Below, in pieces: positions 28,910 to 52,170 of a DNA stretch of 64,000 nucleotides. The position numbers and the translations under genes were made by a program. This stretch comes from Candidatus Xenobia bacterium (GTDB lineage Bacteria > Vulcanimicrobiota > Xenobia > Xenobiales > QWHO01): the NCBI GenBank assembly GCA_045863235.1, contig BTUM01000031.1, positions 15,623 to 79,622 on the forward strand. The letters are read 5' to 3'. Position 1 is the stretch's first letter, and the number at the start of each line of letters is the position of its first letter. A model generated the notes under the pieces. The model did no database searches, was not told the DNA's origin, and saw only the letters and a list, made by a program, of their open reading frames with translations.

Positions 28910-29098
28910 CTCGCCTCTTTCTGAACGGTCCCAAGCTGAAGGGCCCGACTTCGGCGTGAAGTGATCAGGCGCTGAGGAGTTGGCAAACAACGGCAACAAG
29001 CCGGCAACGTCCGTAACGAATTGCTAGCATTTACTTCCCGCCAGGACCCGCCCGGAGCGTTAGGATGCTCTCAGACACCCATGGCAGGAGGAACTCAC

Positions 29099-29818
29099 GT
29101 GGACGCTCTGCAGCAGCTCAACTCCCTCGGTGGTCCAGGCTTCGGATTCTCGCCGGGTCTCTCGGCCTTCTCGCCCGGAGCTGCCGGGGCCCGCTGCCTC
29201 GGGGGCTGCTGTGGAATGCAAAATCCCTTCGCGATGATGATGCTGCAGAACCAGATGCTGACCCAGATGCTGAGCATGTTGATGCAGCTGATGAGCCCGT
29301 CGGCGAGCTCGCTGGGCGGCTCCCCTTCCTCGCTGGGCGGCTCCTTCTCCCCCGCCTCGACGGGCGGCTCCTCCTCGCCTTCTTCCACGGGAACGGGATC
29401 GAGCTCGGGCGCCGGCAGCGGGGCGGTGGACGCCTCCCAGTTCCAGGGCGGCACCGAGACCGGCCGCCGACTGGCCGCCGAAGCCCAGAAAGAAGCAACC
29501 AACGGCGACAGCAGCGGGGGCTGGTGCTTCCGCGACGCCGGCCGAGCCCTGGCCAAGGTGGGCATCAACACCAGCGGTGCCAGCGCCTACATGGCCGCCG
29601 ACCAGCTGGCCAAGAACCCCAAGGTCAAAGAAATCAAGGTCTCCCAGGCCGACCTGCCCAAGCTGCCCCCGGGCGCCATCGTGGTCTGGGACAAGGGGCC
29701 GGGCCATCCGCACGGGCACATCAGCATCGCCCTGGGCAACGGCAAGGAAGCCAGCGACCTGCTGCGCAACCAGATCACCAACTATGGCACCAGCTTCCGC
29801 GTATTCATGCCGATCTAG
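29099..29818 (+). CDS. CHAP/NlpC-P60-like cysteine amidase with low-complexity N-terminus
   Basis: GWCF (catalytic Cys), GAIVVW, HGHISI; AGGAGG before GTG 29099. Confidence 0.75.
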   Translation: MDALQQLNSLGGPGFGFSPGLSAFSPGAAGARCLGGCCGMQNPFAMMMLQNQMLTQMLSMLMQLMSPSASSLGGSPSSLGGSFSPASTGGSSSPSSTGTGSSSGAGSGAVDASQFQGGTETGRRLAAEAQKEATNGDSSGGWCFRDAGRALAKVGINTSGASAYMAADQLAKNPKVKEIKVSQADLPKLPPGAIVVWDKGPGHPHGHISIALGNGKEASDLLRNQITNYGTSFRVFMPI

Positions 29819-29821
29819 AGC

Positions 29822-30589
29822 TTGTCTGATCCGCTCTTTGCCTACCTCGAAGAGCTGCAGGGAGCCGAGCCGTGGGGCCACGTGCTGGATGCCGGCACGG
29901 GCTGGGGCTCGGCCTCCTGGCTTTTGGGCCTGCCCCTGGCCAGCTTCACCGGCGTAACCGGGGACGCGACCTGGGCCCGCCAGCTGCGCACCGACTTTGC
30001 CCCGAGGCTGCGCCCTTTCGACCGCTTCTTGAGCGGGAACTGGGCTGACCCGGGCCTGCTCGAGGGCGAGCTCTTCGACACGGTGGTGGCCGACTATCTG
30101 CTGGGCGCGCTCGACCGCTGGGCGCCCTACCGCCAGTACGACCTCTTCCAGAGACTGCATCACCTGGTGGGCAAGCGGCTCTACGTGGTCGGCCTGGAGC
30201 CCTATCCCGAGCCGCCCTCCAACGAGGATGAGAAGTTGGTGCTGGAGATCGCCCGACTGCGCGACGCCTGCCACCTGCTTGCCGGCCAACGCCCCCACCG
30301 CGAGTATCCCCTGGCCTGGACGCTGGAAGCCCTGCGCAGGTCGGGCTTTGAGGTACGCGAGAGCCGTCTCTATCCCATCGTATATGCCCGGCGCTTCGTC
30401 GAGGAAGAGCTCGACCTGACCCGACGCACCATCGAAAGCCTGAAACCGGCCAGTCTGGCCCGAGCCCTGGGCGCAGTGGAAAGGGACCTGCGAGCCCGGG
30501 CCCTGCGCCACCTGGAGCGGCGCGGAGGGCTGGCGGCCGGGGCCGACTACGTCGTCGCGGCCCGACCGGCGCGGGAAGGAGCGCCCTGA
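29822..30589 (+). CDS. class I SAM-dependent methyltransferase
   Basis: VLDAGTGWG motif I, FDTVVADYLLG. Confidence 0.85.
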   Translation: MSDPLFAYLEELQGAEPWGHVLDAGTGWGSASWLLGLPLASFTGVTGDATWARQLRTDFAPRLRPFDRFLSGNWADPGLLEGELFDTVVADYLLGALDRWAPYRQYDLFQRLHHLVGKRLYVVGLEPYPEPPSNEDEKLVLEIARLRDACHLLAGQRPHREYPLAWTLEALRRSGFEVRESRLYPIVYARRFVEEELDLTRRTIESLKPASLARALGAVERDLRARALRHLERRGGLAAGADYVVAARPAREGAP

Positions 30590-30609: not shown

Positions 30610-31428
30610 GTGAAGAACCGCACCCCCCGCGTCATTGCGGCGCTCTTGCTGCTGTTGGCGCTGCTGGCGCCCGCTCGGGCACAGGACGTGGACCAACCCG
30701 AGCCTCCCGAGACCTTCAAGCTGGAAGAAGGCAGCGTGCGGGTGCTGGACAAGTTTCGACGTCCGTTCCTGTTGCCCAAAGGCACCGCCTGGATCGGGGC
30801 GCGGCTCGACCTCGACGCCGAGGGGATGAGCCCGTTCATCAAGGACTACGAGGTTCTGAGCGCCGGAGGCGTGGATTACGAGGTCAAGCAAGACGCAGAC
30901 TATGTGAAGTTCCCCCTCGAGAACGGACGAGCCACCGTGCGCTTCGTGGCCTTCACCGATTCGGCCAGCAACCCGGTGCTCTACGAGCTGGTCTTCCTGC
31001 ACAAGGTGAAGGGCAAGGACGTGGTCATCCCTTTGAACGATGCGGCCTGGCGGGCAGGCGACCCCTCCACCGTGGGCTCGCGCACCCTCAGCACCCCGCG
31101 CGACCGGGCTCCCAACCAGAGCTGGGAGTGGGCCCTGCTGATCGGCTTCGTGCTGGCGGGCGTGGTGCTGGCTTATGTCCTCTTCGGGCGCAGTCTTTTC
31201 GCCCGCATGCTCAAGGTCAAGAGAATGGAGGTCACCACCGCGCTGGGATACTCCAACCTGCTGGTGCTGCTGGGCCTGGGCCTGGTGCTGTTGTGCGGGG
31301 CGGGGCTCTACATGTTCCCCAAGATCCTTTGGGGTAAGCAGGTGATGATCTACCTCGTGGTCGGCGGGGGCTGCCTGGCCGGGCTGGGCGCGGGTTACGG
31401 CGCCGGCGTGGTGCTGACAAAGGCCTGA
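30610..31428 (+). CDS. signal peptide + extracytoplasmic domain + three-TM membrane protein
   Basis: Sec signal (ALLLLLALLAPARA); three C-terminal hydrophobic helices; TGATG overlap with next gene. Confidence 0.8.
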   Translation: MKNRTPRVIAALLLLLALLAPARAQDVDQPEPPETFKLEEGSVRVLDKFRRPFLLPKGTAWIGARLDLDAEGMSPFIKDYEVLSAGGVDYEVKQDADYVKFPLENGRATVRFVAFTDSASNPVLYELVFLHKVKGKDVVIPLNDAAWRAGDPSTVGSRTLSTPRDRAPNQSWEWALLIGFVLAGVVLAYVLFGRSLFARMLKVKRMEVTTALGYSNLLVLLGLGLVLLCGAGLYMFPKILWGKQVMIYLVVGGGCLAGLGAGYGAGVVLTKA

Positions 31429-34400
31429 TGGACACTCCCGGCGCCCAGGCCGACCTGATCCGCATCCGCCCCACCATCTTGATCGGGCTGGGAGGCACCG
31501 GCGGCGACGTCATCTTGCGCGTGCGCAAGCGCTTCTACGAGAAGTACGGCACGCTGTCGGAGTTTCCCATCGTGGCCTACCTGTGGCTCGACACCGACAA
31601 GAGCGAGAAGCACATCCTGGGCAAGGAAGTGCGCGAGTTCGTGCGCATGACCGACGTCGAGCGGTTGATGCTCACGATCGGCGACACCACCGTCATCACC
31701 CAGAACCTGAAAGAGCCCAACAACGCCCACATCGACAAGTGGTGGTACCCGGGCCTGAACGCGCTGGGCCAGATGAACGAGGGCGCGGGACAGATCCGCG
31801 CCTACAGCCGGCTGGCCTTCTTTCACCACTACAAGACCATCCGCGCGGCCGTGACCGAGGCCAACACCCGGGTGCGCGATCCGCACGCCATGGAGCGGAT
31901 GATGCACTCGAACATCCTCAAGGACCAGGGCATCCTGGCTCAAGTCGAGTTCAACCAGCCCACCAACGTCTACCTGGTCACCTCCATCGCCGGCGGGACC
32001 GGCAGCGGGCTGTTGCTCGATACCGCTTTCATGATCAAGGACCTGTTCCAGGAAGGCAACGTCACCCTCAGCTCGTTTCTGGTCTTCCCCGATCACTTCG
32101 GCACCATCACCAACGAGAAGATGAAGGCCAACGCCTACGCCCTGCTCAAGGAGCTGAACTACTACAAGTATGGCAGCCACACGTTCGACGCCGAGTGGTC
32201 GCTGGGAGTCACTGCCCGGGTTCCCATCCCCCCCTTCGACTACTGCTACGTCTTCGACAACCAGAACGCGGCCGGCCAGGCCACCGGCGGCCAGCCCGGC
32301 AGCCAGGAGCTGATCTTCGAGCTTCTGGCCGACTCTATCTTCAAGGATTTCTCCCACGGCGAGTTCGCCGACCACAAGCGCAGCGCCCGGGTCAACCTGC
32401 GCCAGTACATGAACAAGACCTACGAGCACGCCCATCCGCGCTTCAAGCAGAACTTCATCCAGCGCTACCAGTCGTTTGGCATGTCCACCATCGTGGTACC
32501 CCACGCCCGCATCACCACCGCCTGCGCCTACAAGCTGGCCACCGAGGTGGTGGACCTGTGGTCGGGCCAGAGCAAGGCCTCTTTCAACCAGGCCGATCTG
32601 CCCCGTTTCGTCAAGGAAGACTTCCTGCCCGCCCTGCACCTTCTGGAGGACGACTCCAAGCGCAAGAACGAGATCCTCTTCTCTCTGCTCGATCCGGGCG
32701 GCCTGGCCGACCCCGACAAGGGGCGCAACCAGGGCCTGCTCGACGAGTTGAGCAAGTGGTCGCAGGAGGTGCTGCGCAACGTGGAGCGCGGCCAGCTCGG
32801 CCCGCGCCAGACCCTGCGCGACTTTCTGGAAGAGAAGTTCGGCGAGCAAGAAAAGCGCCTCAAGGCCGAAGAGCTGGGGGCCGAGCCCGAGAAGTGGGGC
32901 CACTTCCCGCGCACCATCCGGGCCAACCTGGAGGCCCTGGAGAAGCGCGCCAGCGAGGACATCCGCAAGAAAGCGTTCCAACTCGTCGATCAAAAGAACG
33001 ACAGCCTGAAGTACTCCGAAGCCGTCTTGAACGAGACCGTCGAGGTGTTGCGCTCGTTCGTGACCACTTTCCAGAAAAAGCAGAGCGACATTCAGGACGT
33101 TCTGGTCCGGCGCCAGAAAGAGGCCACCCGCCGGCTGCAGGAAGTGGGGCGCTACCAGAACCGCTCCAACCTGGACGGGCGTAAGGGCATCATCCTGGCT
33201 TACGTGGCCGAGCGCTACCTCGAGTCGCTGGTGGGCGACAACCGCACTCCCGGCCTCTTGCGCTGCCAGCTGCAGGCCCGCGTCTACAGGGAGGGAGCCG
33301 AGCTGATCGAGCGGTTGGCCCGGGCCATCCAGGGCAGCGAGCGTCCCGATGGGCGTCGGGGCGGAGGGATGGTGGATCAGCTCACCTCCCTGGCCCGCGA
33401 CCTCGAGGGGCTCAAGAACGAGCTGGCGGGCGGGTTCAAGTACTTCAGTCAGAAGGATCCCCAGCCCCAGGCCCTGGTTCTCTACGAGCCCACCGACATC
33501 GAGAGCAAGTACTACCCGGCCTACGTCAAGGGCACCGAGACGGTGCAGGCGGTCAGCAAGGCCGTGCTCAAGCGGCTGGAGCGGGCCGTCACGGGCCTGG
33601 CAGCCGACATCGCGGCAGGGCGCACCGAGGAGTGGAAGCGGGCTCTCTTGACCGAGTCGCGCAACCTGTTCGCCGGGCTGAAGACCGACTTTCACGTGGT
33701 CAAGGTGCTCTACACCACGATGGACGAGCAGACGCGCAACAACCACCTGCGCCAGATGTACTCCCGCTCGGCCTACTGGGCCACCAGAAGCGGCCTGCAT
33801 GGGACCTTCCAGCTGCCTGAAGAGCAGATCCACACCATGTGCGGGTTGCCCTCAGCGGCCGGCATGAGCCCATCGGACGCCGCCGAGCTGACCGGCTACC
33901 TCAACCAGCTCAAGGCCTATCTCACCCGCGAGGTGACCGGCAAGCTGAACTTCTATCCCATCCCCGAATCGAGCGAGATCATCTTCTACCAGGAGGCGGG
34001 CGGCTTCCCCATCAACTACATGGCCCGCTTGACCGATCTGCGCGGCTCCTACCTCAAGCTTTACACCAACGGCGAGCCGCTGCACATCGACTGCAACGAC
34101 AAGAAGTTCCCCGACCTGATGGTGCTCAACCAGGAAGAGCGGCGCTCTCTGGAGGAAGCCTACGAGTGCTGGGTGCTCGGCTGTCTGTTCGACGTGCTGG
34201 AGTTCAAGGGGGGCGAGTATCTGTGGCAGGAGCGCGACGGTTTCCAGATGCGCCCGCACCCTCTGGGGGATCGGCACATGATGCTGGTCAAGCTGACCAC
34301 CGGGGCGGCCACCCGCGAGAAGCTCTACAAGCTCGTCAAGCAGCGGCGCGACGCGGTGCTCTCCACCCAGGACGAGCAGGAGATGGCCGCCTACTGCGCC

Positions 34401-34667
34401 CTGCTCGAGCATTACAAGCGCGAGGCTTACGGCGAGAAGTGGGGCAAGGTCTCCAGCGAGTCGGAGCTACCCTTCGAGGACATGATGACGGTGCGGGTTC
34501 TCTCCGATGAGGTGCAGCACGTGATGGAGTCCCCTCTGGTACGCTCGCTGGGGCCCGACGCCATCGGGCAGAAGGCCGAAGAGGTGATGGCCCGGGCCGA
34601 GCAGTTCACCAGGAAGCGCGAGGACGGCAAGCTGGCCCTGCTGGCGGCCACCAAGACCAAGCCCTAG
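31428..34667 (+). CDS. tubulin-like (Tubulin_2 / FtsZ-superfamily) GTPase domain protein with long helical C-terminus
   Basis: IGLGGTGG, GAGQIRAYSRLAF, SIAGGTGSG, ANAYALLKEL. Confidence 0.9.
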   Translation: MDTPGAQADLIRIRPTILIGLGGTGGDVILRVRKRFYEKYGTLSEFPIVAYLWLDTDKSEKHILGKEVREFVRMTDVERLMLTIGDTTVITQNLKEPNNAHIDKWWYPGLNALGQMNEGAGQIRAYSRLAFFHHYKTIRAAVTEANTRVRDPHAMERMMHSNILKDQGILAQVEFNQPTNVYLVTSIAGGTGSGLLLDTAFMIKDLFQEGNVTLSSFLVFPDHFGTITNEKMKANAYALLKELNYYKYGSHTFDAEWSLGVTARVPIPPFDYCYVFDNQNAAGQATGGQPGSQELIFELLADSIFKDFSHGEFADHKRSARVNLRQYMNKTYEHAHPRFKQNFIQRYQSFGMSTIVVPHARITTACAYKLATEVVDLWSGQSKASFNQADLPRFVKEDFLPALHLLEDDSKRKNEILFSLLDPGGLADPDKGRNQGLLDELSKWSQEVLRNVERGQLGPRQTLRDFLEEKFGEQEKRLKAEELGAEPEKWGHFPRTIRANLEALEKRASEDIRKKAFQLVDQKNDSLKYSEAVLNETVEVLRSFVTTFQKKQSDIQDVLVRRQKEATRRLQEVGRYQNRSNLDGRKGIILAYVAERYLESLVGDNRTPGLLRCQLQARVYREGAELIERLARAIQGSERPDGRRGGGMVDQLTSLARDLEGLKNELAGGFKYFSQKDPQPQALVLYEPTDIESKYYPAYVKGTETVQAVSKAVLKRLERAVTGLAADIAAGRTEEWKRALLTESRNLFAGLKTDFHVVKVLYTTMDEQTRNNHLRQMYSRSAYWATRSGLHGTFQLPEEQIHTMCGLPSAAGMSPSDAAELTGYLNQLKAYLTREVTGKLNFYPIPESSEIIFYQEAGGFPINYMARLTDLRGSYLKLYTNGEPLHIDCNDKKFPDLMVLNQEERRSLEEAYECWVLGCLFDVLEFKGGEYLWQERDGFQMRPHPLGDRHMMLVKLTTGAATREKLYKLVKQRRDAVLSTQDEQEMAAYCALLEHYKREAYGEKWGKVSSESELPFEDMMTVRVLSDEVQHVMESPLVRSLGPDAIGQKAEEVMARAEQFTRKREDGKLALLAATKTKP

Positions 34668-35204
34668 ATGTTGTGCCTGCGCTGCGGAGCCAGCCCTCCG
34701 GCAGGCTCGAAGTATTGCCCTCAATGCAACGCGCTCTTGCTCCAGGCCGCCCCTCAGGAGCCGCGGGCAGGCCTTTCGCTCGAGGAAGGGCGCGAATATC
34801 CGGTGCCGCAAGAGCGCTTCCTGACCCACAACCTGAACGTGCTGCACGACCTTCTCTATCACAATCTCGAGGAGGTACCCGGCTATCTGAGCGAGTTGCG
34901 CGGGCTGCTCGAGGAGTTCGCCGGTCAGGCCGTGCCCCAGCTCCTCGAGCTCTTGCTGGTGGAGGAGCAGGCCGACCCGGAGGGCAGCTTTGTGCCCGAG
35001 GTGCGCTATCTGATGGTGCGCGGGGTGGATCTCTTCCGAGAAGGACTGGATCGACTCGAAGGCGCCCTCTCTCCGCTGGACGAGGCGGAAGCCGAGTCGG
35101 CCTTCGAGACCCTCTCGCAGGGCAACGATCATCTGTGCGGCGGGCTGCTCAAAGTGGAGGAGCGCCAGCAAGAACTCCTTCGGCGCGTCGAGCGCGCGCC
35201 TTGA
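34668..35204 (+). CDS. zinc-ribbon + helical-bundle protein
   Basis: CLRCG...YCPQC; ATG abuts TAG of the tubulin-like gene. Confidence 0.8.
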   Translation: MLCLRCGASPPAGSKYCPQCNALLLQAAPQEPRAGLSLEEGREYPVPQERFLTHNLNVLHDLLYHNLEEVPGYLSELRGLLEEFAGQAVPQLLELLLVEEQADPEGSFVPEVRYLMVRGVDLFREGLDRLEGALSPLDEAEAESAFETLSQGNDHLCGGLLKVEERQQELLRRVERAP

Positions 35205-35372
35205 TGCCCTCGAAACAGCTTTTTCTCACGCAACGTGCCCGAACCGTCAACATCCGAACGATTAAGAGTTTACAATATTTCGAAAAACGTTAAGGTTTTT
35301 GTTGCAAACGGACTGTTTACCCTGGTGCCGGAGGTCGTGACAGAGAACTATCCGGCCAAGGAGGAACACAGC

Positions 35373-35843
35373 ATGAGTTTACTGAGCGGAATCGGCGACA
35401 TCGCGAAGGGCGCCGTCGGGATTGCCACCACCCCCCTGCGCAAAGGACTGGAGATCGCGGGAACGGGGCTGGAAACAGGCGGTAAGGTGCTGGGAAACCT
35501 GGCCGAGGGCGATCTGGCCGGAGCCGCCTCGGCGGCCGCCAACGGCACGGTCCAGCAGTTCAAGAACGTGGTCTCCACCCCGGGCGAGGTGCTCGGGGAC
35601 GCCAAGGAGATGGCCGGCGGTTACGGCGACGTGCTGACCAGCGGGGTCAAGCTGGTGGGAGAGCCGGTGCGGGGCGCGGCGCGCCTGGTCGGCAACGGGC
35701 TGGAGACGAGCGGCTCGACCCTCACCAACCTGGCCGAGGGCGATGTGGGTGGAGCCATCAACGCCCAGGTGCAGGGTGCCGGCAACGCCTTCGGCATCGT
35801 GGGCGACACGGCCAAGAACCAGGTCAACAACCTGGTGGGCTGA
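35373..35843 (+). CDS. Gly/Ala-rich amphipathic protein with internal duplication
   Basis: AAGGAGGA RBS; GLETGGKVLGNLAEGDLAGA vs GLETSGSTLTNLAEGDVGGA; own terminator. Confidence 0.8.
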   Translation: MSLLSGIGDIAKGAVGIATTPLRKGLEIAGTGLETGGKVLGNLAEGDLAGAASAAANGTVQQFKNVVSTPGEVLGDAKEMAGGYGDVLTSGVKLVGEPVRGAARLVGNGLETSGSTLTNLAEGDVGGAINAQVQGAGNAFGIVGDTAKNQVNNLVG

Positions 35844-35857
35844 GCTTCGTCGGATCG

Positions 35858-35889
35858 AAGAGCCGGGCTCCACAAGCCCGGCTCTTTTT
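35858..35889 (+). terminator. intrinsic terminator
   Basis: aagagccgggct-ccaca-agcccggctctt followed by T tract. Confidence 0.85.
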
Positions 35890-35898
35890 GCGTTGTGC

Positions 35899-36397: not shown

Positions 36398-39115
36398 TCA
36401 AGGGCTGACCAGCAGCGGATAGACGGCCTCGAACGAGCGAGGGATCAGGCCCAGCTCCTTCTCGAAGTGAGCCAGGGTATCGCGATACTGGCGCAGAGCC
36501 TCGCCCTTGCGATTCTGCAGCGCCAGGGCCTCGATCAGGTCGATGTGCAGCTCCTCGCGCAGGTCATCCTGGGCCAGCCCGGCCCGGGCGGTCTCTTCCG
36601 CCAGGCGGCCCTGTCCCATGGCCAGCCGGCAGCGGGCCAGCTGGTGATGAGCCCGCAAGCGCAGCTCGAGATAGTGGGCCCGGGGCCCTTCGACCCAGGG
36701 CTCGTCGAAGCTGGCCAGAAAGTCGCCCCGGTAGAGCTCCAGGGCGCTCTGCAGCTGCTCGGCCGCCTCGGCTCCCTCGGCCAGCCGGCTGGCGGCGGCC
36801 ATCAGCCGGGTCTCGAAGTCTTCCAGGTCGAGCGAGGCGTCCAGGTGCAGTTCCACCGTGCCCGACTTGCGGCTGCGCCGGATCACCTCTTGCTCCACCC
36901 CCACCTGGCGCAGCACGGTGCGGATCTGGTGCAGGGCGTGGCGCAGGTTGGAACGTCCGCGGGTCGGGTCGGCCTCGGGCCAGAAAGCTTCCACCAGCAC
37001 CCCGTCGGCGTGGGCCGCTCCCCGGCGGTGGGCCAGCATCGCGAAGAGGCGCAGGGCTTTGCGGGTGGGCCAGTCGCTCTCGCCGATCACGCGACGTCCT
37101 GCCTCCAGGCGCACGTCTCCCAGGCAACGCAGGCGCAGGCGCTCGACCGGCTCGGCCGGCTCGCTCTCGCGCAGGGGTCGCAGCAACCAGACCGCGCCCG
37201 GACCGGGGAGATCGAGGCCTTGCTCGGCCTGTCGGGCCGGCTCGCTCTGACCGAGGAGGTGCAGCGCCTCCGACTGCAGCCACGGATTGCCCAGCTCTCC
37301 GGCCTGCTCGGCCACTCCGGCCAGCACCCCGGCACGTTCGGCACCGCTCAGGGCAGCCACGCTGGCCACCGCCATCAGCTCGCCCATCTTGTTGCCGTAG
37401 AGCTCAAACTGCTCGGCGGCCTCCTGGAAGGCCTCCTGGGAGCGCTGCACCACACCCAGCCCCATCAGGCTCCAGCCCACCAGGTGGGTATCCCCCAGCA
37501 ACCGCGCCTCGCGCAGGCTATCCTCGAAGGAGGCCACAGCCTGGGCTCTGCGCCCCAATCCGAACAACGACAGCCCCAACGGAAAGCGAGCCAGCCCGGG
37601 CAGCCGGGCCATCCCCAGCTCGCGGGCCAGCTCGAAGCTCTCCTGGGCCTGGGCCAGAGCCGTCTCGTAACGACCGGCCAGGGCCTCGACTGTGGCCGAG
37701 ATGCGCAGCGCGTGGGCGCGGGCCGCCTGATCGCCGGCCAGCTGCAGGCTCTGATCCACCGTCGCGCGGGCCGGCTTCAGCTCGCCCCGAAAGGCCTGGA
37801 TCAAGGCCGCGTAGTTAAGGCACTTCAGCCGTTCATCGCGGTCGGAGCCTTCCAGGGACTGGCCGTAGAGCTGCAGGGCCTGGCGATAGCGGCCGGTGTT
37901 CAGGCAAACCCCGGCCAGCGAGATGCGCGCCTTGAGGTCGGAGTCGGCCCGGCCCAGCAGCAGGGCTTCGGCTTGCTCCGACCGGCCCAGGCAGCTCAGC
38001 GCGTTGGCCTGCACCACGGCCAGCTGGTCCGGGCGACCCACCCGCTCCACGGCGCCGATCACGAACTGGTACTGACCGCGAGAGCAGAGCCCGGCGGCCA
38101 CCTGCTCCAGGAGCTCCCGGGCCCGGGTCTCCTGCCCGGCGCTCAGAAAGAGCTCGAAGGCCGGCTGGGACTGGCCCAGCTCGGTGAAAAGCTCGGCCAG
38201 CTCGAGGCTCCGCTGACGACGCATCTCGGCCCCCAGCCCGGCCGCCACCTGACCGGCCAGCAACTGGTGCAGCAGCACTCCTCCGCCCGGGTCGCGCTGC
38301 ACCAGAAAGCGCTTCTCCAGGGTTTCCAGGGCCGGTCCCAGGCAATCGCCCGGCAGGCCCACCGGGCTCAGGGCGAGGAGCTCCAGGGCCCTCCGCTCCT
38401 CGGGACCAACCTGGCCGAGCACCTCACGAAGCAGGTAGTCACGCACCGCGGCCGGGGCCTCGCTGAGCTTACCGGGCAGCAGCCGCCGGCTCACGATCAG
38501 GCTGGCCAGCAGCTTGATCAACAGAGGATGGCCGCCGGTGGCCGAGGCCAGCTCGGCCAGCGGGGGCAGCTCGCTCTCCAGGCCCGGGTGCAGGGCCAGC
38601 AGTCGCTCGAGCAAGAGGCGAGCCATCTCGGGAGGCAGCTCCTCGAGCCGCTGCTCGAAGATGTCCACCCGGTCGAGCGGCGCCACCGGCAGGTCCTCGC
38701 GGGAAACCAGCACCACGCGCGCCGACAGGTAGGTCTGCAGTAGCTTGACCAGGGTATCCAGGTCGGCCGGACGCAGCAGGTGGGCGTCGTCGATGACAGC
38801 CAGCCGATCGCTCTGGTTCAGCCAGCGGATCTGGATCAGCAACCGATCGCGCACCGAGGCAGTACCTGCTTCCCCGCCCGAAGCCGCCTCCAGGGCGGCG
38901 GCCAGGTCCTCCAGTCCCCCGTCGGGGAGGCAGCGCAGGTAGAAACCGCGCCGCCCTGGCTGGCGGTGCAGCAGAGCCAGTGCCAGCGAGGTCTTGCCGA
39001 TGCCCGCCAGCCCGGTGATCAGGAAGAGATGGCGGTGAGCCAGTACGTCGCTCAGCCTGGTCAGCTCGCTCTCGCGGCCCAGGAACGTCTCGGGGGGACG
39101 AGGCAGCAGGTCCAT
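36398..39115 (-). CDS. STAND-type NTPase + TPR + C-terminal winged-helix/BTAD transcriptional regulator
   Basis: FLGRESEL, GLAGIGKT, VIDDAH, TGGHPL; C-terminal WPTRKALRLF, FWPEAD, LYRGDFL, DDLREE. Confidence 0.88.
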   Translation of the reverse strand: MDLLPRPPETFLGRESELTRLSDVLAHRHLFLITGLAGIGKTSLALALLHRQPGRRGFYLRCLPDGGLEDLAAALEAASGGEAGTASVRDRLLIQIRWLNQSDRLAVIDDAHLLRPADLDTLVKLLQTYLSARVVLVSREDLPVAPLDRVDIFEQRLEELPPEMARLLLERLLALHPGLESELPPLAELASATGGHPLLIKLLASLIVSRRLLPGKLSEAPAAVRDYLLREVLGQVGPEERRALELLALSPVGLPGDCLGPALETLEKRFLVQRDPGGGVLLHQLLAGQVAAGLGAEMRRQRSLELAELFTELGQSQPAFELFLSAGQETRARELLEQVAAGLCSRGQYQFVIGAVERVGRPDQLAVVQANALSCLGRSEQAEALLLGRADSDLKARISLAGVCLNTGRYRQALQLYGQSLEGSDRDERLKCLNYAALIQAFRGELKPARATVDQSLQLAGDQAARAHALRISATVEALAGRYETALAQAQESFELARELGMARLPGLARFPLGLSLFGLGRRAQAVASFEDSLREARLLGDTHLVGWSLMGLGVVQRSQEAFQEAAEQFELYGNKMGELMAVASVAALSGAERAGVLAGVAEQAGELGNPWLQSEALHLLGQSEPARQAEQGLDLPGPGAVWLLRPLRESEPAEPVERLRLRCLGDVRLEAGRRVIGESDWPTRKALRLFAMLAHRRGAAHADGVLVEAFWPEADPTRGRSNLRHALHQIRTVLRQVGVEQEVIRRSRKSGTVELHLDASLDLEDFETRLMAAASRLAEGAEAAEQLQSALELYRGDFLASFDEPWVEGPRAHYLELRLRAHHQLARCRLAMGQGRLAEETARAGLAQDDLREELHIDLIEALALQNRKGEALRQYRDTLAHFEKELGLIPRSFEAVYPLLVSP

Positions 39116-39128
39116 CGAGGCAGGCTTC

Positions 39129-39992
39129 TCAGCCGACCCGGTTCCACTCCTCCACGTACTCAAAAAGGCCCGGGTCGCGCTGGCGCAAGAGCTCGCGCTC
39201 GGCCTGATTGTTGAGATAGAAGGCCACGCCCTCAGCCAGGTACTCGTAGACTTTGTGGCTGCGGGCGGCGTACTCGCTGACCACGTGCTGCTCGGCGTCG
39301 GGACGATACTCGCGGGGCTCGGCGAAGCGGTCGGTCTCGCGCGGCGCGAAGACGGTCTCGGCCAGCTTCTTGCCGGTCCAGGCGGTGCCGACCACGGCCG
39401 CCGCGGCCGCCACCGGCACCAGACCGGTGGCCAGCGAGGCGCCTACAGCCAGGGCGGTCACCAGGGCCGGGGTCCTGGCTCCCCGAGCCCAGCCCTCCCA
39501 GTCGCGGGGCTGAGTCTGGGGCGAGGCCGTGCGGGTCAGGTAACCCCGGTAGAGGTGCTCGAGGCGGCTGTCCAGCTGGGAGGCATACGGCTTGTCGAAC
39601 CGGCTGAAGAAGCGCTGCACGGGGCCGAGCTTGCTCTGGCGCTTGAGGAAGTCGAGCGCGTGGGTGATTTCGTGGAGAGCCGCCCGGCGCCGCTCGTTGG
39701 GGGCCCAGCTGGGGTTCAGGTCGATCCGCTTCTGATAGCCGTTCTGGATGCCGCCGATCTGGCTCGGCAGGCACTTGTAGCTGATCCGGTAGCCGGCCGT
39801 GCACAGCTTCTCGACCTGCTCGGGTGTGAACGACTCGAGCACGCCGAGCAGCTCCGCGCGCAGCTCGCGGGTGGCATACTGGGGGTTGAGCAACTGGTCG
39901 AGCGCCTGCGCCGCGTCGGAGCGGCCGGCCTGCTCGGGGATACGAGCGGCGACGGAGCGGACGGGCAGGTTCAAGAGGCCGTTGATTCTCAC
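39129..39992 (-). CDS. anthrax lethal factor-like (ATLF/PPEP-type) zincin with hydrophobic hairpin insert
   Basis: LHEITHALD, SEYA...YEYLAEGVAFY, LRQRDPGLFEYV; GTG 39992 start inferred. Confidence 0.7.
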   Translation of the reverse strand: MRINGLLNLPVRSVAARIPEQAGRSDAAQALDQLLNPQYATRELRAELLGVLESFTPEQVEKLCTAGYRISYKCLPSQIGGIQNGYQKRIDLNPSWAPNERRRAALHEITHALDFLKRQSKLGPVQRFFSRFDKPYASQLDSRLEHLYRGYLTRTASPQTQPRDWEGWARGARTPALVTALAVGASLATGLVPVAAAAAVVGTAWTGKKLAETVFAPRETDRFAEPREYRPDAEQHVVSEYAARSHKVYEYLAEGVAFYLNNQAERELLRQRDPGLFEYVEEWNRVG

Positions 39993-47442: not shown

Positions 47443-49101
47443 TTAGATCGAGACTTCGTCGCGCTCTCCCCCGCCGCCAGCGCCACTCTTTTGAGCGCGC
47501 ACCAGCGTGTAGTAGAGCGTCTCCTTCCCCTCGGGGCGGATCTCGAGGCGGGCCTCGGGGCCCTCCCAGCGGACCGAGGTGGCCTCGGGGCTGCCGTTGA
47601 CCTCCACCTCGGGCTCAGGCACCACCGACAGGCTCCCGAAGCGCTGGCGCAGGCGGGCAAGCTCCAGGCCGTTGGGGCTGCAGATCAGGTAGCTGCCGGC
47701 CAGGTAGGGCAGGCTCAGCTCCTCATCCTCTCCCGGACCCTCCAGGCGATAGGCTGACCTGAGCCCGAAGGCGGCCCAGGCCACCAGCAGCGCGACGGCC
47801 AGCCCTCCCAGGCCGAGCAGGCCGAGCATGATGGCCCCCAGCGGGTTCGCGCGGGTGCGCACGATCAGCTTGCGCTGAAAGGAGATGCTGCGCTGGTTGT
47901 CCTGTTGATCCCCCCCCTGGTAGACCATCAGCTCCTCGATGGCAGCCAGGTTGGGCACGTGGGCCACCCGCTCGGTCATCTCGGGAGAGAGGGAGGGGCG
48001 CAGGTCCCCCTCCTCCACCCCTTCGCGCGACAGCTCGATGGTAGCTCGCAGCTTGACCTGGCCTTCGATGTCCTGGAGATAGCTGGCGAACAGGTCGCTC
48101 AGGAAGGGGCGCTCGAGCTTGAGGGGGGTCTCGCGGGCCTGCAGGTCGATGAGGAAGAAGTCGGCGCTCTCCTGGCCGGCGTCCACGGTCAGCTTCTGGG
48201 GGGTAACCTTCTTGCTGAACTTCTGCTCGCCGGCCTCGGGGTAGCTGTCGGGGATGGTCAGCTCGACCTCGGCGTCCTCCATCGTGGCATCCACGATCTT
48301 CCAGCCCTTGAGGTGGGAGCGAACCCGAAACTTGAGCTGGCCGGCCAGCTCGTCTCCCTCTTCGAAATTGAGCACCGTGGTGCCGCCCTCTTCCTCCACC
48401 TGGTGCTCGCCGAAGGGAGTCTGGACCTGCAGCTCTTTGCCGAAGTCGAGCACCGAGCGACCCGGGTCGCTGTACAGAGGACGAAACAGCACCCCCTCGT
48501 AGCCAGTCTTGCGCTTGACCTCGCTGGCCAGCTCGTCCACCCAGCCCGCGTCTGGCTCAGCCTTGACCAGCAGGTACATCACCAGGGCCTCACCCTGATG
48601 GTCGGTGCGGGCGAGCGGAAAAAAGTAGACGTGGGTGAAGGCCGGATCGCCGGCCAGGCGCTCGTAGAACTGACGATCGCTGCGGTTGCCGGCCAGATTG
48701 TTCTCGTTATCGGTGAGGATCCAGGTCAGCACCACATCGGATCGATTCTGCTCCAGGGCCAGATCAAGACAGCGGTTCATGTCGGTGGCCCCACCGCCGG
48801 GAACGGGGAGTAGAGCCGGGTCGAACGACGACAGGGGCGCCGAAGGAAGCGCCGCCCGCCCTTCGCGGGCATCGGTCGCGGCGTCGGAGAAGGGCACGAT
48901 GGTCAGGGAGTCCGAAGCGGCGAAGCGCTCGCCACCCGGCGCAAACAGCTTCTGCACCAGCTCGCGCACGGTCGGGCCCCATCCCTCGCGGGTGGCGTAG
49001 CCCCGGTCGCGCATGCTCCCCGAGACGTCCAGCATCAAGACGTGCTGGGTCTCGGCGGCGACCGGCGCGAGCAGCAAGAAGAGCAGCAGAAGCAGCCTCA
49101 C
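47443..49101 (-). CDS. secreted vWA domain + TM + cytoplasmic FHA-like beta domain protein
   Basis: Signal peptide, LDVSGSM MIDAS, GATD, ILTD; TM near C-terminus; VEVNG in tail. Confidence 0.8.
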   Translation of the reverse strand: MRLLLLLFLLLAPVAAETQHVLMLDVSGSMRDRGYATREGWGPTVRELVQKLFAPGGERFAASDSLTIVPFSDAATDAREGRAALPSAPLSSFDPALLPVPGGGATDMNRCLDLALEQNRSDVVLTWILTDNENNLAGNRSDRQFYERLAGDPAFTHVYFFPLARTDHQGEALVMYLLVKAEPDAGWVDELASEVKRKTGYEGVLFRPLYSDPGRSVLDFGKELQVQTPFGEHQVEEEGGTTVLNFEEGDELAGQLKFRVRSHLKGWKIVDATMEDAEVELTIPDSYPEAGEQKFSKKVTPQKLTVDAGQESADFFLIDLQARETPLKLERPFLSDLFASYLQDIEGQVKLRATIELSREGVEEGDLRPSLSPEMTERVAHVPNLAAIEELMVYQGGDQQDNQRSISFQRKLIVRTRANPLGAIMLGLLGLGGLAVALLVAWAAFGLRSAYRLEGPGEDEELSLPYLAGSYLICSPNGLELARLRQRFGSLSVVPEPEVEVNGSPEATSVRWEGPEARLEIRPEGKETLYYTLVRAQKSGAGGGGERDEVSI

Positions 49102-49129: not shown

Positions 49130-50410
49130 TCAGACCTGCAAAGGCAGGGCCGCCACGCCGCCCCAGGCGTCGGACACGAACAGGTGGGTGCTCGTCAGCA
49201 CGGGTGAGACCCCCCCGGGCTCGGGGGGCGACAGCACCTTGCGCGAAGCCAGCACCTGGAAGTGATCCGGGCTCAACTCGAGGAGATATGCGGTTCCATC
49301 GGCTGCCGCCACCAGGGCCCGGTTGCCCACCACCAGGGGCTCGCTGGTGCAGTGCTGGGGGATCTGCTGGTGGGAAACGCGGCCCGAGTGCAGGTTCACC
49401 CGTCGCAGCATGCGCCCGTGGCAGGAGACCACGTCCTCTTGTGAGGCCCCCAGAGCGAACAGGGGCTGGGGGCTCGGCTCGCAGATGGCCAGCGGGGCAC
49501 CACCGGCCGGGTCGAGGCGATAGAGAGCCCCGTCGCTGGCCGCCACCAGCGCGAAATCGGTGCGCCCCAGCAGCGGGCACGGGGCCAGGGGGGTGGGAAG
49601 CCGCGCTTCGCCCAGCGAGCGACCATCGGGGATGTGATAGCTGAACAGGCTCCCCCCGCCCTCGGCGGCCAGCAGGTGATCGCCCACGATGGCCAGGGCA
49701 AGAAAGGCGTGCTCGGGGTGGAGGCGGCCGGGCGAGCGCTTCCAGAGCAACTGCAGGCCCTGACGGGTCAACTCGAAGACGTGCAGCCAGGCCGAGTCCT
49801 CCGAGCTGGTGGCCAGGGCGGCGTAGCGACGGCCGTCCGAGGCCACGTGCGAGCATACGTTTCCTTGCAGCTCGATGACCCGCTTGCGGGTGCCCGAGCC
49901 GGGACTGACCTCTAACAGATCCACCAGATCGGCCGCGTAGAGACGGTCCTGGGCGGCCACCAGCAAGAGCTCGTCGAGCAGGGCCGGCGAGGCCACCACC
50001 TCGGTGACTCCCGGTAGGGGTTTGGAATGGAGCGGGGCCGGGCCCGTGGGGGCGGCGAAGATCTCCACCCGTCCCTGGCGGTCCAGGCGAACCATGAGCT
50101 CTGAGGTCACCAGAGGAGAACCGGCCACGGGCTGGCTTTGAGAAGACTGGTAGACCCAGGCGGCGGGTAGATCCGAGTCGAGCGCCAGGCTCGCTCGCAG
50201 GGCCGGCGCCCCGCTCTGTCCACCGCGCGTGCTCCAGCCCCGGGATTGGAGGGCGCTGCCGCAGTGACGGCAGTAGCGAGCCAGCACCCGATTGGGGGTG
50301 TGGCAGTGGGCGCACGACACCAGGGGACGACCGCACTCGGAGCAGCGACCCTGGGCGGGGTCGGCCAGGGGATGCTCCTCGCGGGCCAGATAAGGACACT
50401 CGCCGGACAC
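49130..50410 (-). CDS. double zinc ribbon + PQQ-like beta-propeller protein
   Basis: CSECG, CAHC, YCRHCG; ASPAL, DGALYRLD blades; GTG 50410 start inferred. Confidence 0.8.
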   Translation of the reverse strand: MSGECPYLAREEHPLADPAQGRCSECGRPLVSCAHCHTPNRVLARYCRHCGSALQSRGWSTRGGQSGAPALRASLALDSDLPAAWVYQSSQSQPVAGSPLVTSELMVRLDRQGRVEIFAAPTGPAPLHSKPLPGVTEVVASPALLDELLLVAAQDRLYAADLVDLLEVSPGSGTRKRVIELQGNVCSHVASDGRRYAALATSSEDSAWLHVFELTRQGLQLLWKRSPGRLHPEHAFLALAIVGDHLLAAEGGGSLFSYHIPDGRSLGEARLPTPLAPCPLLGRTDFALVAASDGALYRLDPAGGAPLAICEPSPQPLFALGASQEDVVSCHGRMLRRVNLHSGRVSHQQIPQHCTSEPLVVGNRALVAAADGTAYLLELSPDHFQVLASRKVLSPPEPGGVSPVLTSTHLFVSDAWGGVAALPLQV

Positions 50411-50559
50411 GACTGGCCCATTCTGCCGCGCGGGAACAAATCCCGCCCGAGTGCGACAGAGCAAGGAAATTCGGAGGTTCGGGGAGGTTTGCAGGACCTG
50501 GGGTAGAACCTCTGGATCAGGGGAGAGTCTGAGATTTGCGGCGTGCGAGGCGGTAGACG

Positions 50560-52170
50560 ATGGCAAACTTGAATGATTGGGCCTCCAACAACGAGGGAGG
50601 ACCGGGCAGCGGCGGTCGCGCCCCCCTGCCTCCACCCCCTCGCAGCGGGTCCCTGCCCCCGCCCCCTCCACGCCCGAGCGCCCTGCCTCCTCCCCCGTCG
50701 GCAGCAACGCCCACTCCCAGCACCCTTCCGCCCCCGCCTTCAGCCCGGCCGGCCGGGGTGGGCACCTCCTGGCCAGCCTGGGGGGAGGAAGAGGAAGACG
50801 TTCGCAAACCTCTGCCCAAGACGCCTACCTCGAGTCAAAGCCGGCCAGCCGCCCGTGGAGGGCCGCCCGGCGCGGCCCCGAGCTGGCCAAGCTGGGCCGA
50901 GGAGGAGGAAGACGAAGGTCCTGCTCGACCGTCCGCCCGGGGCAAGTCCTCCGGTTGGGATTCGGAGAGCAAGGCATCCGGCCGTAGCTCCGCCTCATCG
51001 TCCATGCCGGCCTGGGCGGCCGATCAGCCCGAGGCCCAGGAAGGCTGGCTGACAAGCGCCCCGGCAGCGACGCCCAAAGGAGGGCTACCTCCGGTCGCCC
51101 CCCCGTCCGAATCCCAGGCCGAGGCCACCTCCTCGGCGGCCGTCTGGGAGAGCGATGGCTTGATGGGTCCGGCCACCATTCCGGTGGACGACTCCGACCC
51201 GCTGCCCAGCATGCGCCCCTCGGACGCACACAACAAGAAAATGCTGATGATCGCCGTGGGCCTGCTGCTGCTGGTGGTGGCCGGCCTGGGATTCATGCTG
51301 ACTCGCCCGGCTGCCAAGCCGGTGGCCGTCGCCACTGCCGACGTCCTGCAGCCCTCCGAGCTGATGGACAAAGCCCGGGGCATGGCCGAGAAGAAGAACT
51401 ACAAGGGTGCCTCGCTGGAAGCCGAGGCAGCGGCCACCATGCTCCAGGCCTCCCTGGACAAGGACCCGACCAACGCTGAGCTCAAAAAGCAGTGGATCCA
51501 GGCCGAAGAGCTGCTGGCCTCGATGTATCTCAAGTCAGAGCAGTTCGACCGGGCTTACAAAACCTACAAAGAGCTGCACAACAACACCGGCGTGAAGAAG
51601 TACGCCGCGTCCGCCCAGGAGGCCGAGAAGCTGCGCCTCAAGGCCATCCGCGCCGAGGGTCAGGCGAAGCTCGACCTGGCCAAACAGATGCTCAAGAGCA
51701 ACAACCCCGCCGGGGCCATCATGGAAGGTCTGCACGCCGAGCAGCTCTTCACCGACGGCAAGGGCACCAGCGCCCAGAGAGCGGCCGTCTGCTACACTCT
51801 CGGTCGGGCCTTCGAGGCCCAGCAGCAGGACGAGCGAGCCGAGGAGTATTACAAGAAGGCCGTGACCCTGGCTTACAACGGGGAGTATGCCGCCGCCCTG
51901 GCCCGGGTGCGCAGTCGCACCGCGCCGGTGATCGTCACCGCCCCCCAGGTTCAGGAAGTGGAAGTCGTCAATAGCGTGCCGCAGGGGCCTCGCAATGTGC
52001 GGCGTGTCGTTCGGCGACCCGCCCCTGCACCACCCCGCGTGGTCGCCCAGCCTCCGCCCCCGAAGCGCCCAACCGTGGCGGCCCCGCCCGTGAGCCGGCG
52101 CCCTCCCAAGAGCAGCGGGCCGCCCAAGTTCAGCTCCGATAACGACCCCAGCAAGTTCAAATACTATTAA
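50560..52170 (+). CDS. Pro/Ser-rich N-terminus + TM + TPR-like membrane protein
   Basis: TM MLMIAVGLLLLVVAGLGFML; YTLGRAFE...AEEYYKKAV TPR; GAGG upstream. Confidence 0.8.
   Translation: MANLNDWASNNEGGPGSGGRAPLPPPPRSGSLPPPPPRPSALPPPPSAATPTPSTLPPPPSARPAGVGTSWPAWGEEEEDVRKPLPKTPTSSQSRPAARGGPPGAAPSWPSWAEEEEDEGPARPSARGKSSGWDSESKASGRSSASSSMPAWAADQPEAQEGWLTSAPAATPKGGLPPVAPPSESQAEATSSAAVWESDGLMGPATIPVDDSDPLPSMRPSDAHNKKMLMIAVGLLLLVVAGLGFMLTRPAAKPVAVATADVLQPSELMDKARGMAEKKNYKGASLEAEAAATMLQASLDKDPTNAELKKQWIQAEELLASMYLKSEQFDRAYKTYKELHNNTGVKKYAASAQEAEKLRLKAIRAEGQAKLDLAKQMLKSNNPAGAIMEGLHAEQLFTDGKGTSAQRAAVCYTLGRAFEAQQQDERAEEYYKKAVTLAYNGEYAAALARVRSRTAPVIVTAPQVQEVEVVNSVPQGPRNVRRVVRRPAPAPPRVVAQPPPPKRPTVAAPPVSRRPPKSSGPPKFSSDNDPSKFKYY

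Follow-up and report, generated by a model that had tools for sequence, protein, structure and literature searches.

We analysed a 64,000-nucleotide stretch of a Candidatus Xenobia genome (hereafter the window) and found that a tubulin-like protein encoded in it, protein B, belongs to a six-part system whose members fall into recognisable families. Relatives encode these parts in one joint operon; in this genome the parts are separated, at three loci, and they have been co-inherited vertically. We tentatively propose, at slightly less than an even chance, that the six parts would work together as a single machine for contact or adhesion that spans the envelope. The window lies on contig C31 of an 8.36 Mb genome (completeness 97.6%), and its closest named homologs are from Vulcanimicrobiota / Candidatus Xenobia. 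The initial annotation, made from the window alone, described a translationally coupled operon of three genes, for a membrane protein (protein A), the giant tubulin-like protein B and a zinc-ribbon protein (protein C). Its three open reading frames, all on the forward strand, were borne out, as were a TGATG overlap at 31426-31430 and a TAG-ATG junction at 34665-34670. The parts of the system lie as follows:

30610..31428, forward strand: protein A gene, 272 residues; signal peptide and three transmembrane (3-TM) segments; predicted membrane anchor of the tubulin-like protein
31428..34667, forward strand: protein B gene, 1079 residues; FtsZl1 / Tubulin_2
30610-34667, forward strand: A-B, locus 1
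47443..49101, reverse strand: vWA gene, detached partner
49130..50707, reverse strand: zinc-ribbon/propeller gene, detached partner, 28 bases upstream of the vWA gene
50707-47443, reverse strand: propeller-vWA, locus 2, 13 kb from A-B
Contig C28, 29845-33850: Hsp70-GrpE, locus 3

Protein B is, by sequence, an FtsZl1 / Pfam Tubulin_2 protein. A PF13809 search confirmed the assignment to Tubulin_2 with 225.7 bits against a cut-off of 27 (E 1.3e-66), and B covers model positions 1-356, that is, the whole model. The protein comprises a GTPase-like domain (residues 17-376), a long helical region (about 365-745) and a C-terminal tail at its end, and residues of about 760-900, in which a mixed alpha/beta pattern is seen by eye, form a probable alpha/beta domain. 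The earlier description of some 700 residues of helical or coiled-coil sequence holds in part: the coiled-coil signal is clearest at about 450-680, but 760-900 looks mixed alpha/beta. By crude methods, the coiled coil appears as a profile match to apolipoprotein A-IV helices at 454-676 (E 1.5e-5) and as a heptad score that peaks at 480-560.

The tubulin signature GGTGSG is present as annotated, reading S-I-A-G-G-T-G-S-G at 186-194, with S186, G189-G192 and G194 invariant in 67/67 aligned homologs; the FtsZl1 loop type GGGTG(S/T)G occurs in B as the variant AGGTGSG (188-194). Residues G20-G25, D55-T56-D57, G119-R124, S186-G194, D277 and N280 are invariant or nearly so across the 67 homologs, and we take them to be the tubulin loops T1, T2, T3, T4 and (D277/N280) T6, respectively. 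Because these nucleotide-loop motifs are so well kept, B likely binds a guanine nucleotide. Hydrolysis by the FtsZ mechanism is not supported, since the positions equivalent to the T7 acids of FtsZ, aligned by eye, are variable (E312 is E in 29/67 and D315 is D in 24/67) and are followed by invariant K317, R318 and N323 and near-invariant R321.

The B gene is under purifying selection, with a ratio of non-synonymous to synonymous substitution (dN/dS) of 0.06 and 0.17 against two congeners; B identity across neighbouring families is 58-66%, and its divergence is about twice that of RpoB. Hydropathy gave no transmembrane segment in B. A phmmer search of B against the PDB returned 0 matches, and the ESM Atlas gave for the B region only Tubulin_2 clusters below 0.9, without a model. 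On the strand/helix pattern judged by eye, we hypothesise that residues of about 760-900 may be the displaced C-terminal domain of tubulin. Comparison of residues 745-900 with FtsZ profiles (29 and 53 sequences, sliding windows) gave nothing exceeding background in a test of low power, where the true N-terminal homology itself scored weakly (E 0.0016), and PDB and Pfam searches of the same region were blank. The statement that B is not FtsZ agrees with the two FtsZ_C matches of the genome, which lie elsewhere, and with the lack of an FtsZ_C match in B; B coexists with conventional FtsZ, for which this genome has two separate genes. A second Tubulin_2 protein (C59:17769-22148, 1459 residues) is a tubulin-like/NTPase fusion: its GTP loop is degenerate, it contains a long helical region, and its C-terminal domain is of the P-loop (Walker A-like) kind. 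Congeners have comparable long frames. A third (C36:66255-68960, 901 residues) is degenerate, and the partner genes of the system are not nearby.

We searched 61 genomes, of which 16 hold a B ortholog (this one included), and fetched wide loci for the 15 relatives. In this gene-neighbourhood analysis the membrane gene proved to be a conserved partner, with A directly upstream of B in 14/15 orthologous loci; in the exception, A follows the vWA gene on a different contig from B. A precedes B in Acidobacteriota loci also. Protein A has, as annotated, an N-terminus resembling a signal peptide and, towards its C-terminus, three hydrophobic segments (about 171-199, 208-241 and 245-263), together with a beta-rich outside domain of about 140 residues and a conserved amphipathic loop between the first and second transmembrane segments. 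Its family is small (61 representatives at 50% identity, the longest at most 335 residues) and matches no known one: A has no Pfam match, a sub-threshold NCBIfam match and no usable ESM Atlas or PDB match, and its own ESM Atlas model has a predicted local distance difference test score (pLDDT) of 0.45. The 3-TM modules of other clades score 27.2 (Latescibacterota), 19.3 (Ignavibacteria) and 15.8 (g2) against A, with nil for 2/7 sets, where 28 unrelated membrane proteins used as controls average 9.7 (standard deviation 2.2) and the top control is itself such a 3-TM gene; homology of these modules to A is a weak lead.

The intact operon of relatives encodes, in order, a zinc-ribbon/propeller protein, a vWA protein, the 3-TM protein, FtsZl1, a zinc-ribbon/Ig/Hsp70 protein and a GrpE-like protein, followed in some by MotA-like and MotB/OmpA-like proteins. 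Such operons occur in Vulcanimicrobiota relatives (other families of the order), Acidobacteriota, Latescibacterota and others, and cyanobacterial loci hold vWA, FtsZl1, MotA and MotB only. The initial annotation had mentioned an association of this protein family with vWA genes, and one does exist, but here the gene lies in trans, 13 kb away, and in relatives it lies in cis: the gene at 47443-49101 is orthologous to the one that precedes A where the operon is intact. The vWA protein has a signal peptide, a vWA domain, a beta-rich stalk, one transmembrane helix and a cytoplasmic beta-rich domain. Its MIDAS-type residues (D25, S27, S29, T106 and D131) are intact and conserved in at least 18 of 20 aligned sequences; the family profile matches integrin I domains (best E 1.4e-6), and 5/20 members match VWA_2. 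From pattern likeness, the cytoplasmic end might presumably be taken as FHA-like; Pfam shows no such fold.

The propeller protein, product of the first gene of intact operons, combines a double zinc ribbon with a PQQ-type beta-propeller and lacks a signal peptide; its Pfam matches (DZR, PQQ_2, propeller) are all under cut-off. Its true start probably lies about 300 bases inside the longest reading frame, as the alignment with relatives begins at about residue 100. In the Hsp70 partner, every ATPase motif and a substrate-binding beta domain are preserved (family profile against DnaK, E 2.6e-62), and the GrpE-like protein passes Pfam with 35.4 bits against a cut-off of 25.8. For the stator, the MotB-type profile gave 0 matches in this genome, single-protein queries were negative, and the MotA-type profile gave one weak match (E 6e-4). 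In one g8 operon (L135), extra genes stand between GrpE and MotA at 401-1444 (347 residues) and 1375-2697 (440 residues, beta-rich). Neither product has a Pfam or PADLOC match, and the 347-residue protein may, by eye, have a degenerate Hsp70-like fold.

Each of the six non-stator parts occurs once in this genome. Congener G004 retains the order propeller-vWA ... A-B on a single strand, its two blocks separated by about 13 kb that include the amidase and methyltransferase genes listed below. In this genome and in G001 the two blocks face each other; the simplest history for these arrangements would be that an insertion came first and an inversion later. In genus g5 the three modules are the same and sit on three large contigs. 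Genus g4 divides the parts into a solitary vWA gene, A-B, and Hsp70-GrpE, the last with the propeller gene nearby. G041 is split differently, into propeller-vWA-A and B-Hsp70-GrpE. The same split has arisen independently in Ignavibacteria, where vWA is apart from the tubulin locus in 5/5 genomes and propeller and vWA are paired in the 3/3 loci read. About a dozen Ignavibacteria genomes (loci L071-L086) have FtsZl1 in a stable housekeeping context, whose neighbours are, by eye, efp, accB, accC, a 3-TM gene, a reductase and an FmdB-like zinc ribbon.

The scattered parts are inherited together. Among the 16 genomes with a B ortholog, 14 have the vWA ortholog and 15 the Hsp70. Among the 45 without one, vWA was matched in three (one 65%-complete congener and two genomes whose intact operon is more distant), and two, both congeners 64-65% complete, gave a match for Hsp70. 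Over 10-16 shared taxa, partial sequences included, the supported splits shared with the RpoB tree were 10/10 for B, 6/6 for A, 9/9 for vWA, 8/9 for Hsp70, 6/7 for the propeller and 3/4 for GrpE, and the conflicts concern the long-branched g4. Genus g2 is nested (100/100) among lineages with the scattered system, two of its eight genomes being in the tree. In a search for five of the resident parts (GrpE lay outside it), A, vWA, propeller and Hsp70 were each matched in 0/8 g2 genomes, which also have no B ortholog. All eight carry instead a contiguous vWA-like/3TM/tubulin operon, with a propeller in 7/8 and an Hsp70-like gene near it in 4/8; the tubulin of this operon sits on a long branch within another clade, phylogenetically distinct from the resident one. 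This pattern fits a replacement of cognate parts together, as a set, with the function kept. Since the trees of the scattered parts agree with that of RpoB, and a nested genus has lost these parts and carries an unrelated operon in their stead, the data suggest a retained, cognate trans-envelope machine over a mobile defence island. Beside the resident system, g4 and g5 genomes have a second, strongly diverged propeller/membrane protein/tubulin/Hsp70 operon (L157 in G013:C9, L300 in G007:C1, and G019, G023, G031 and G035), which in G013 sits among polysaccharide-synthesis genes. In two genomes without the resident system (L298 and L299; G030 and G037), a distant tubulin-like gene is followed by a MotA-like gene.

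In the machine that we propose, the surface vWA protein would bind a ligand through its metal site and relay a signal across the membrane to its cytoplasmic beta-domain, with the zinc-ribbon/propeller protein as a putative adaptor. With its three helices and amphipathic loop, protein A would tether FtsZl1 to the inner membrane face, and GTP-bound FtsZl1 could form a local scaffold there by means of its long helical arm. The dedicated Hsp70-type ATPase, with its own GrpE-like exchange factor, might then dismantle or reset the scaffold. The ion-driven MotA/MotB stator would be an optional add-on, apparently missing in this lineage, that could add force or ion flux elsewhere. The role is likely constitutive (surface or cell contact, envelope shaping) and not phage-triggered. 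A bolder version, which we consider improbable as a whole, would make the system a bacterial equivalent of the adhesion sites formed by integrins: a surface vWA receptor that depends on metal, together with the 3-TM anchor, would bring in a scaffold of tubulin fold in which a helical arm displaces the C-terminal tubulin domain by about 400 residues, whose GTP cycle runs via the invariant basic residues that replace the T7 aspartate, and which has a private Hsp70/GrpE disassembly engine. This would be a core machine of large-genome, possibly predatory Xenobia, kept after operon break-up and swapped only as a whole set. A predatory lifestyle is suggested for a marine family discussed beside Xenobiaceae, of the same phylum, in the available part of PMC9259500; a link between predation and the FtsZl1 system is speculation.

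Several observations weigh against this proposal. Every physical contact in it is drawn from gene context, and any genes passed on vertically would be expected to give congruent trees, which by itself is no proof of interaction. The g2 replacement is a single event, its members being kin and not independent. With a congeneric query included, the vWA ortholog was not found in 2/6 g4 genomes (97% and 94% complete) nor the Hsp70 in one of the 16 genomes with a B ortholog, and these misses may be real losses; the dedicated Hsp70 was likewise not found in 5/5 Ignavibacteria genomes. The distribution is patchy within the order (a B ortholog in 1/10 g3 and 2/4 g8 genomes), and some relatives have a second, diverged copy, as mobile systems have. 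The MotB-like partner of intact operons matches PADLOC ZorB1 (E 4e-13), a resemblance to ZorB of Zorya. In the 67-homolog alignment of B, a conserved acidic catalytic residue of the T7 type is not apparent, and FtsZ-like polymer dynamics are not established.

We weighed three other explanations. The system might be a dynamin-like device for membrane remodelling or repair, whose GTPase head and helical arm bend or fuse the inner membrane where A marks it; vWA and Hsp70 would then be regulators, and adhesion would play no part. The combination of a GTPase with a long amphipathic helical region and the constant 3-TM neighbour speak for this, and membrane remodelling is the published prediction (Makarova and Koonin 2010, PMC2875224). 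This explanation, however, leaves the outward-facing vWA with its intact metal site and the peptidoglycan-binding stator of many operons unexplained, and B has no transmembrane segment. We regard it as rather unlikely, while noting that it overlaps with the contact machine that we favour. The ZorB1 match of the MotB-like partner instead recalls envelope surveillance against invaders, of the Zorya type or of the type of Kaur et al. 2020, in which vWA senses attack and FtsZl1 polymerises as the effector, here domesticated and with the stator lost. The patchiness across phyla and within the order, the second copies and the one replacement event agree with such a system, and tubulin plus vWA and Hsp70 plus GrpE are themes of GAP1-N2 conflict systems (PMC7159879, in the part available). 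Yet PADLOC at E<=0.01 matched 0/6 of the proteins that make up the system here, and the mapped operons share no conserved nuclease or toxin gene. The parts are unlinked and vertically inherited, and the rate at which B evolves is only about double that of RpoB. In that part of PMC7159879, moreover, the two themes, tubulin and Hsp70, are described as non-overlapping and largely limited to Firmicutes and Actinobacteria.

The link to GTPase-associated conflict systems drawn in the initial annotation also fell away. Both PF19993 (DO-GTPase2; the other DO-GTPase model lay outside the search) and PF20013 (GAP1-N2) gave 0 matches in this 97.6% complete genome, and the control was positive in 1/14 for each; a GAP1/DO-GTPase system was rejected on these two results. 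Overall, we judge an anti-invader role to be unlikely. The remaining explanation keeps to the annotated A, B and C as a self-contained three-gene system, perhaps with the amidase and methyltransferase. Its tight junctions, the purifying selection on C and a C paralog 3 kb downstream of an unrelated tubulin-like gene in 1/8 g2 loci favour it, but C adjoins a B ortholog in 1/13 informative relatives (2 of the 15 loci end at or just after B), and that one is 98% identical in B. The closest C homolog in congener G004 sits on another contig, and there were 0 C-family matches in 80 loci fetched by the B profile. These neighbourhood data largely refute the three-gene unit, which we hold to be very improbable.

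The genes that adjoin A-B are as follows:

29021-29818, forward strand: CHAP-like amidase gene; genus-level neighbour, outside the system
29822-30589, forward strand: methyltransferase-like gene (motif by eye); genus-level neighbour, outside the system
34668..35204, forward strand: protein C gene, 178 residues; helical protein with a zinc ribbon, from a paralog family dispersed in the lineage

Protein C has the annotated CxxC-CxxC pattern at residues 3-20, with weak Pfam zinc-ribbon matches under cut-off, and its gene is under purifying selection (dN/dS 0.047). This genome has four full-length C paralogs at unrelated loci, and 4/5 relatives searched have 3-5 C-family matches per genome. C is a real gene, probably co-transcribed, and is not a conserved part of the system; it was rejected as a partner on its 1/13 adjacency and the unlinked homolog in G004. 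The paralogs, on contigs C109, C117, C74, C61, C34 and C27, form a lineage-expanded family of zinc ribbon plus helical bundle that includes repeat forms of 410-550 residues, and Pfam shows nothing in them beyond the ribbon. The suggestion that the amidase and methyltransferase genes belong with A-B did not hold either: they stand beside A in only 2/15 orthologous loci, both of congeners, and were rejected as partners on that count. A Pfam scan of the methyltransferase-like gene gave no match.

A promoter and terminator scan found a single promoter-like site after C, ahead of the next gene, and a terminator count at chance level (7 vs 5.4). Parts of the window are contained in 21 RNA runs; in the contig sets of the four inspected, coverage spans genes and spacers alike and is unstranded, so that transcription and operon ends are not demonstrable from them. 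The next gene (35235-35890) encodes a Gly/Ala-rich repeat protein, with the promoter-like site at 35247-35276 and a hairpin past its stop; in two of the RNA runs no listed piece is deeper than the contigs from this gene (depth 24 and 19.7), which is no more than a weak hint. At 36398-39163, on the reverse strand, lies the gene of a 921-residue STAND/AAA-TPR-BTAD (SARP/AfsR-like) transcription regulator.

Few branches of the tubulin superfamily are as divergent as FtsZl1. A prediction of 2010 already covered the family and a loose operon; new here are the fragmentation, the vertical co-inheritance and the wholesale replacement. The larger system is not visible from the three genes first described, as its other members are 13 kb off and on another contig, and fragmented systems of this kind are missed or mis-assigned by neighbourhood scans. 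The locus yields a defined parts list for an FtsZl1 system, with evolutionary evidence on which parts are real: the propeller, vWA, 3-TM anchor and FtsZl1 form the core, and Hsp70/GrpE and the stator are options. It also bears on the type of system, in that parts which stay on the species tree after operon break-up and are replaced as a set behave as a cognate working machine, as opposed to a transient defence island.

Among known systems, the DO-GTPase/GAP1-N2 systems (PMC7159879) share with ours a tubulin-domain protein with a coiled coil, a membrane vWA protein, Hsp70 and GrpE genes and a membrane-proximal setting. They differ, as far as that source was available, in their mobile neighbourhoods and non-overlapping tubulin and Hsp70 themes, whereas the parts here are vertical and dispersed. 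No FNIII repeats were seen among the scanned system proteins, a genome-wide search for FNIII not having been made. Zorya ZorAB and the MotAB/ExbBD stators resemble the last two genes of relatives' intact operons, of which one is MotA/ExbB-like and the other, MotB-like with an OmpA domain, matches ZorB models, but the stator pair was not found in this genome; PADLOC gave no match to ZorC/D or ZorE among the 10 system proteins scanned, the genome itself not having been searched for ZorC/D/E. With FtsZ, B aligns in nucleotide-binding motifs of the T1-T6 type, but it lacks an FtsZ_C match and the conserved T7 acidic residues and lies outside the division cluster.

In the literature covered, mainly open-access, FtsZl1 is the subject of predictions only, with no experiment and no description of the six-gene set, and the available part of PMC9871819 uses the family only as an outgroup. 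FtsZl1 (PF13809) was defined with predicted vWA/OmpA membrane-remodelling operons (Makarova and Koonin 2010, PMC2875224). The supplement of that paper lists vWA-FtsZl1-MotA-like-OmpA operons, the cyanobacterial vWA-FtsZl1-MotA-MotB set already among them, and single cases of nearby GrpE (Chloroflexus) and DnaK (Magnetospirillum). The available portion of the paper does not define the six-gene set with its 3-TM anchor, its zinc-ribbon propeller and its zinc-ribbon/Ig/Hsp70 plus GrpE; compared with these operons, our system has no P-loop GTPase or kinase partner, is spread over three co-inherited loci and has no stator that we could find. The vWA gene, a partner in most FtsZl1 operons, is present for B in trans. 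The family is described there with a mostly helical C-terminal domain unlike those of FtsZ and tubulin, and B and the published FtsZl1 proteins are alike in their N-terminal FtsZ-like domain, central coiled coil, length of about 1050-1150 residues and occurrence beside canonical FtsZ, vWA and membrane partners.

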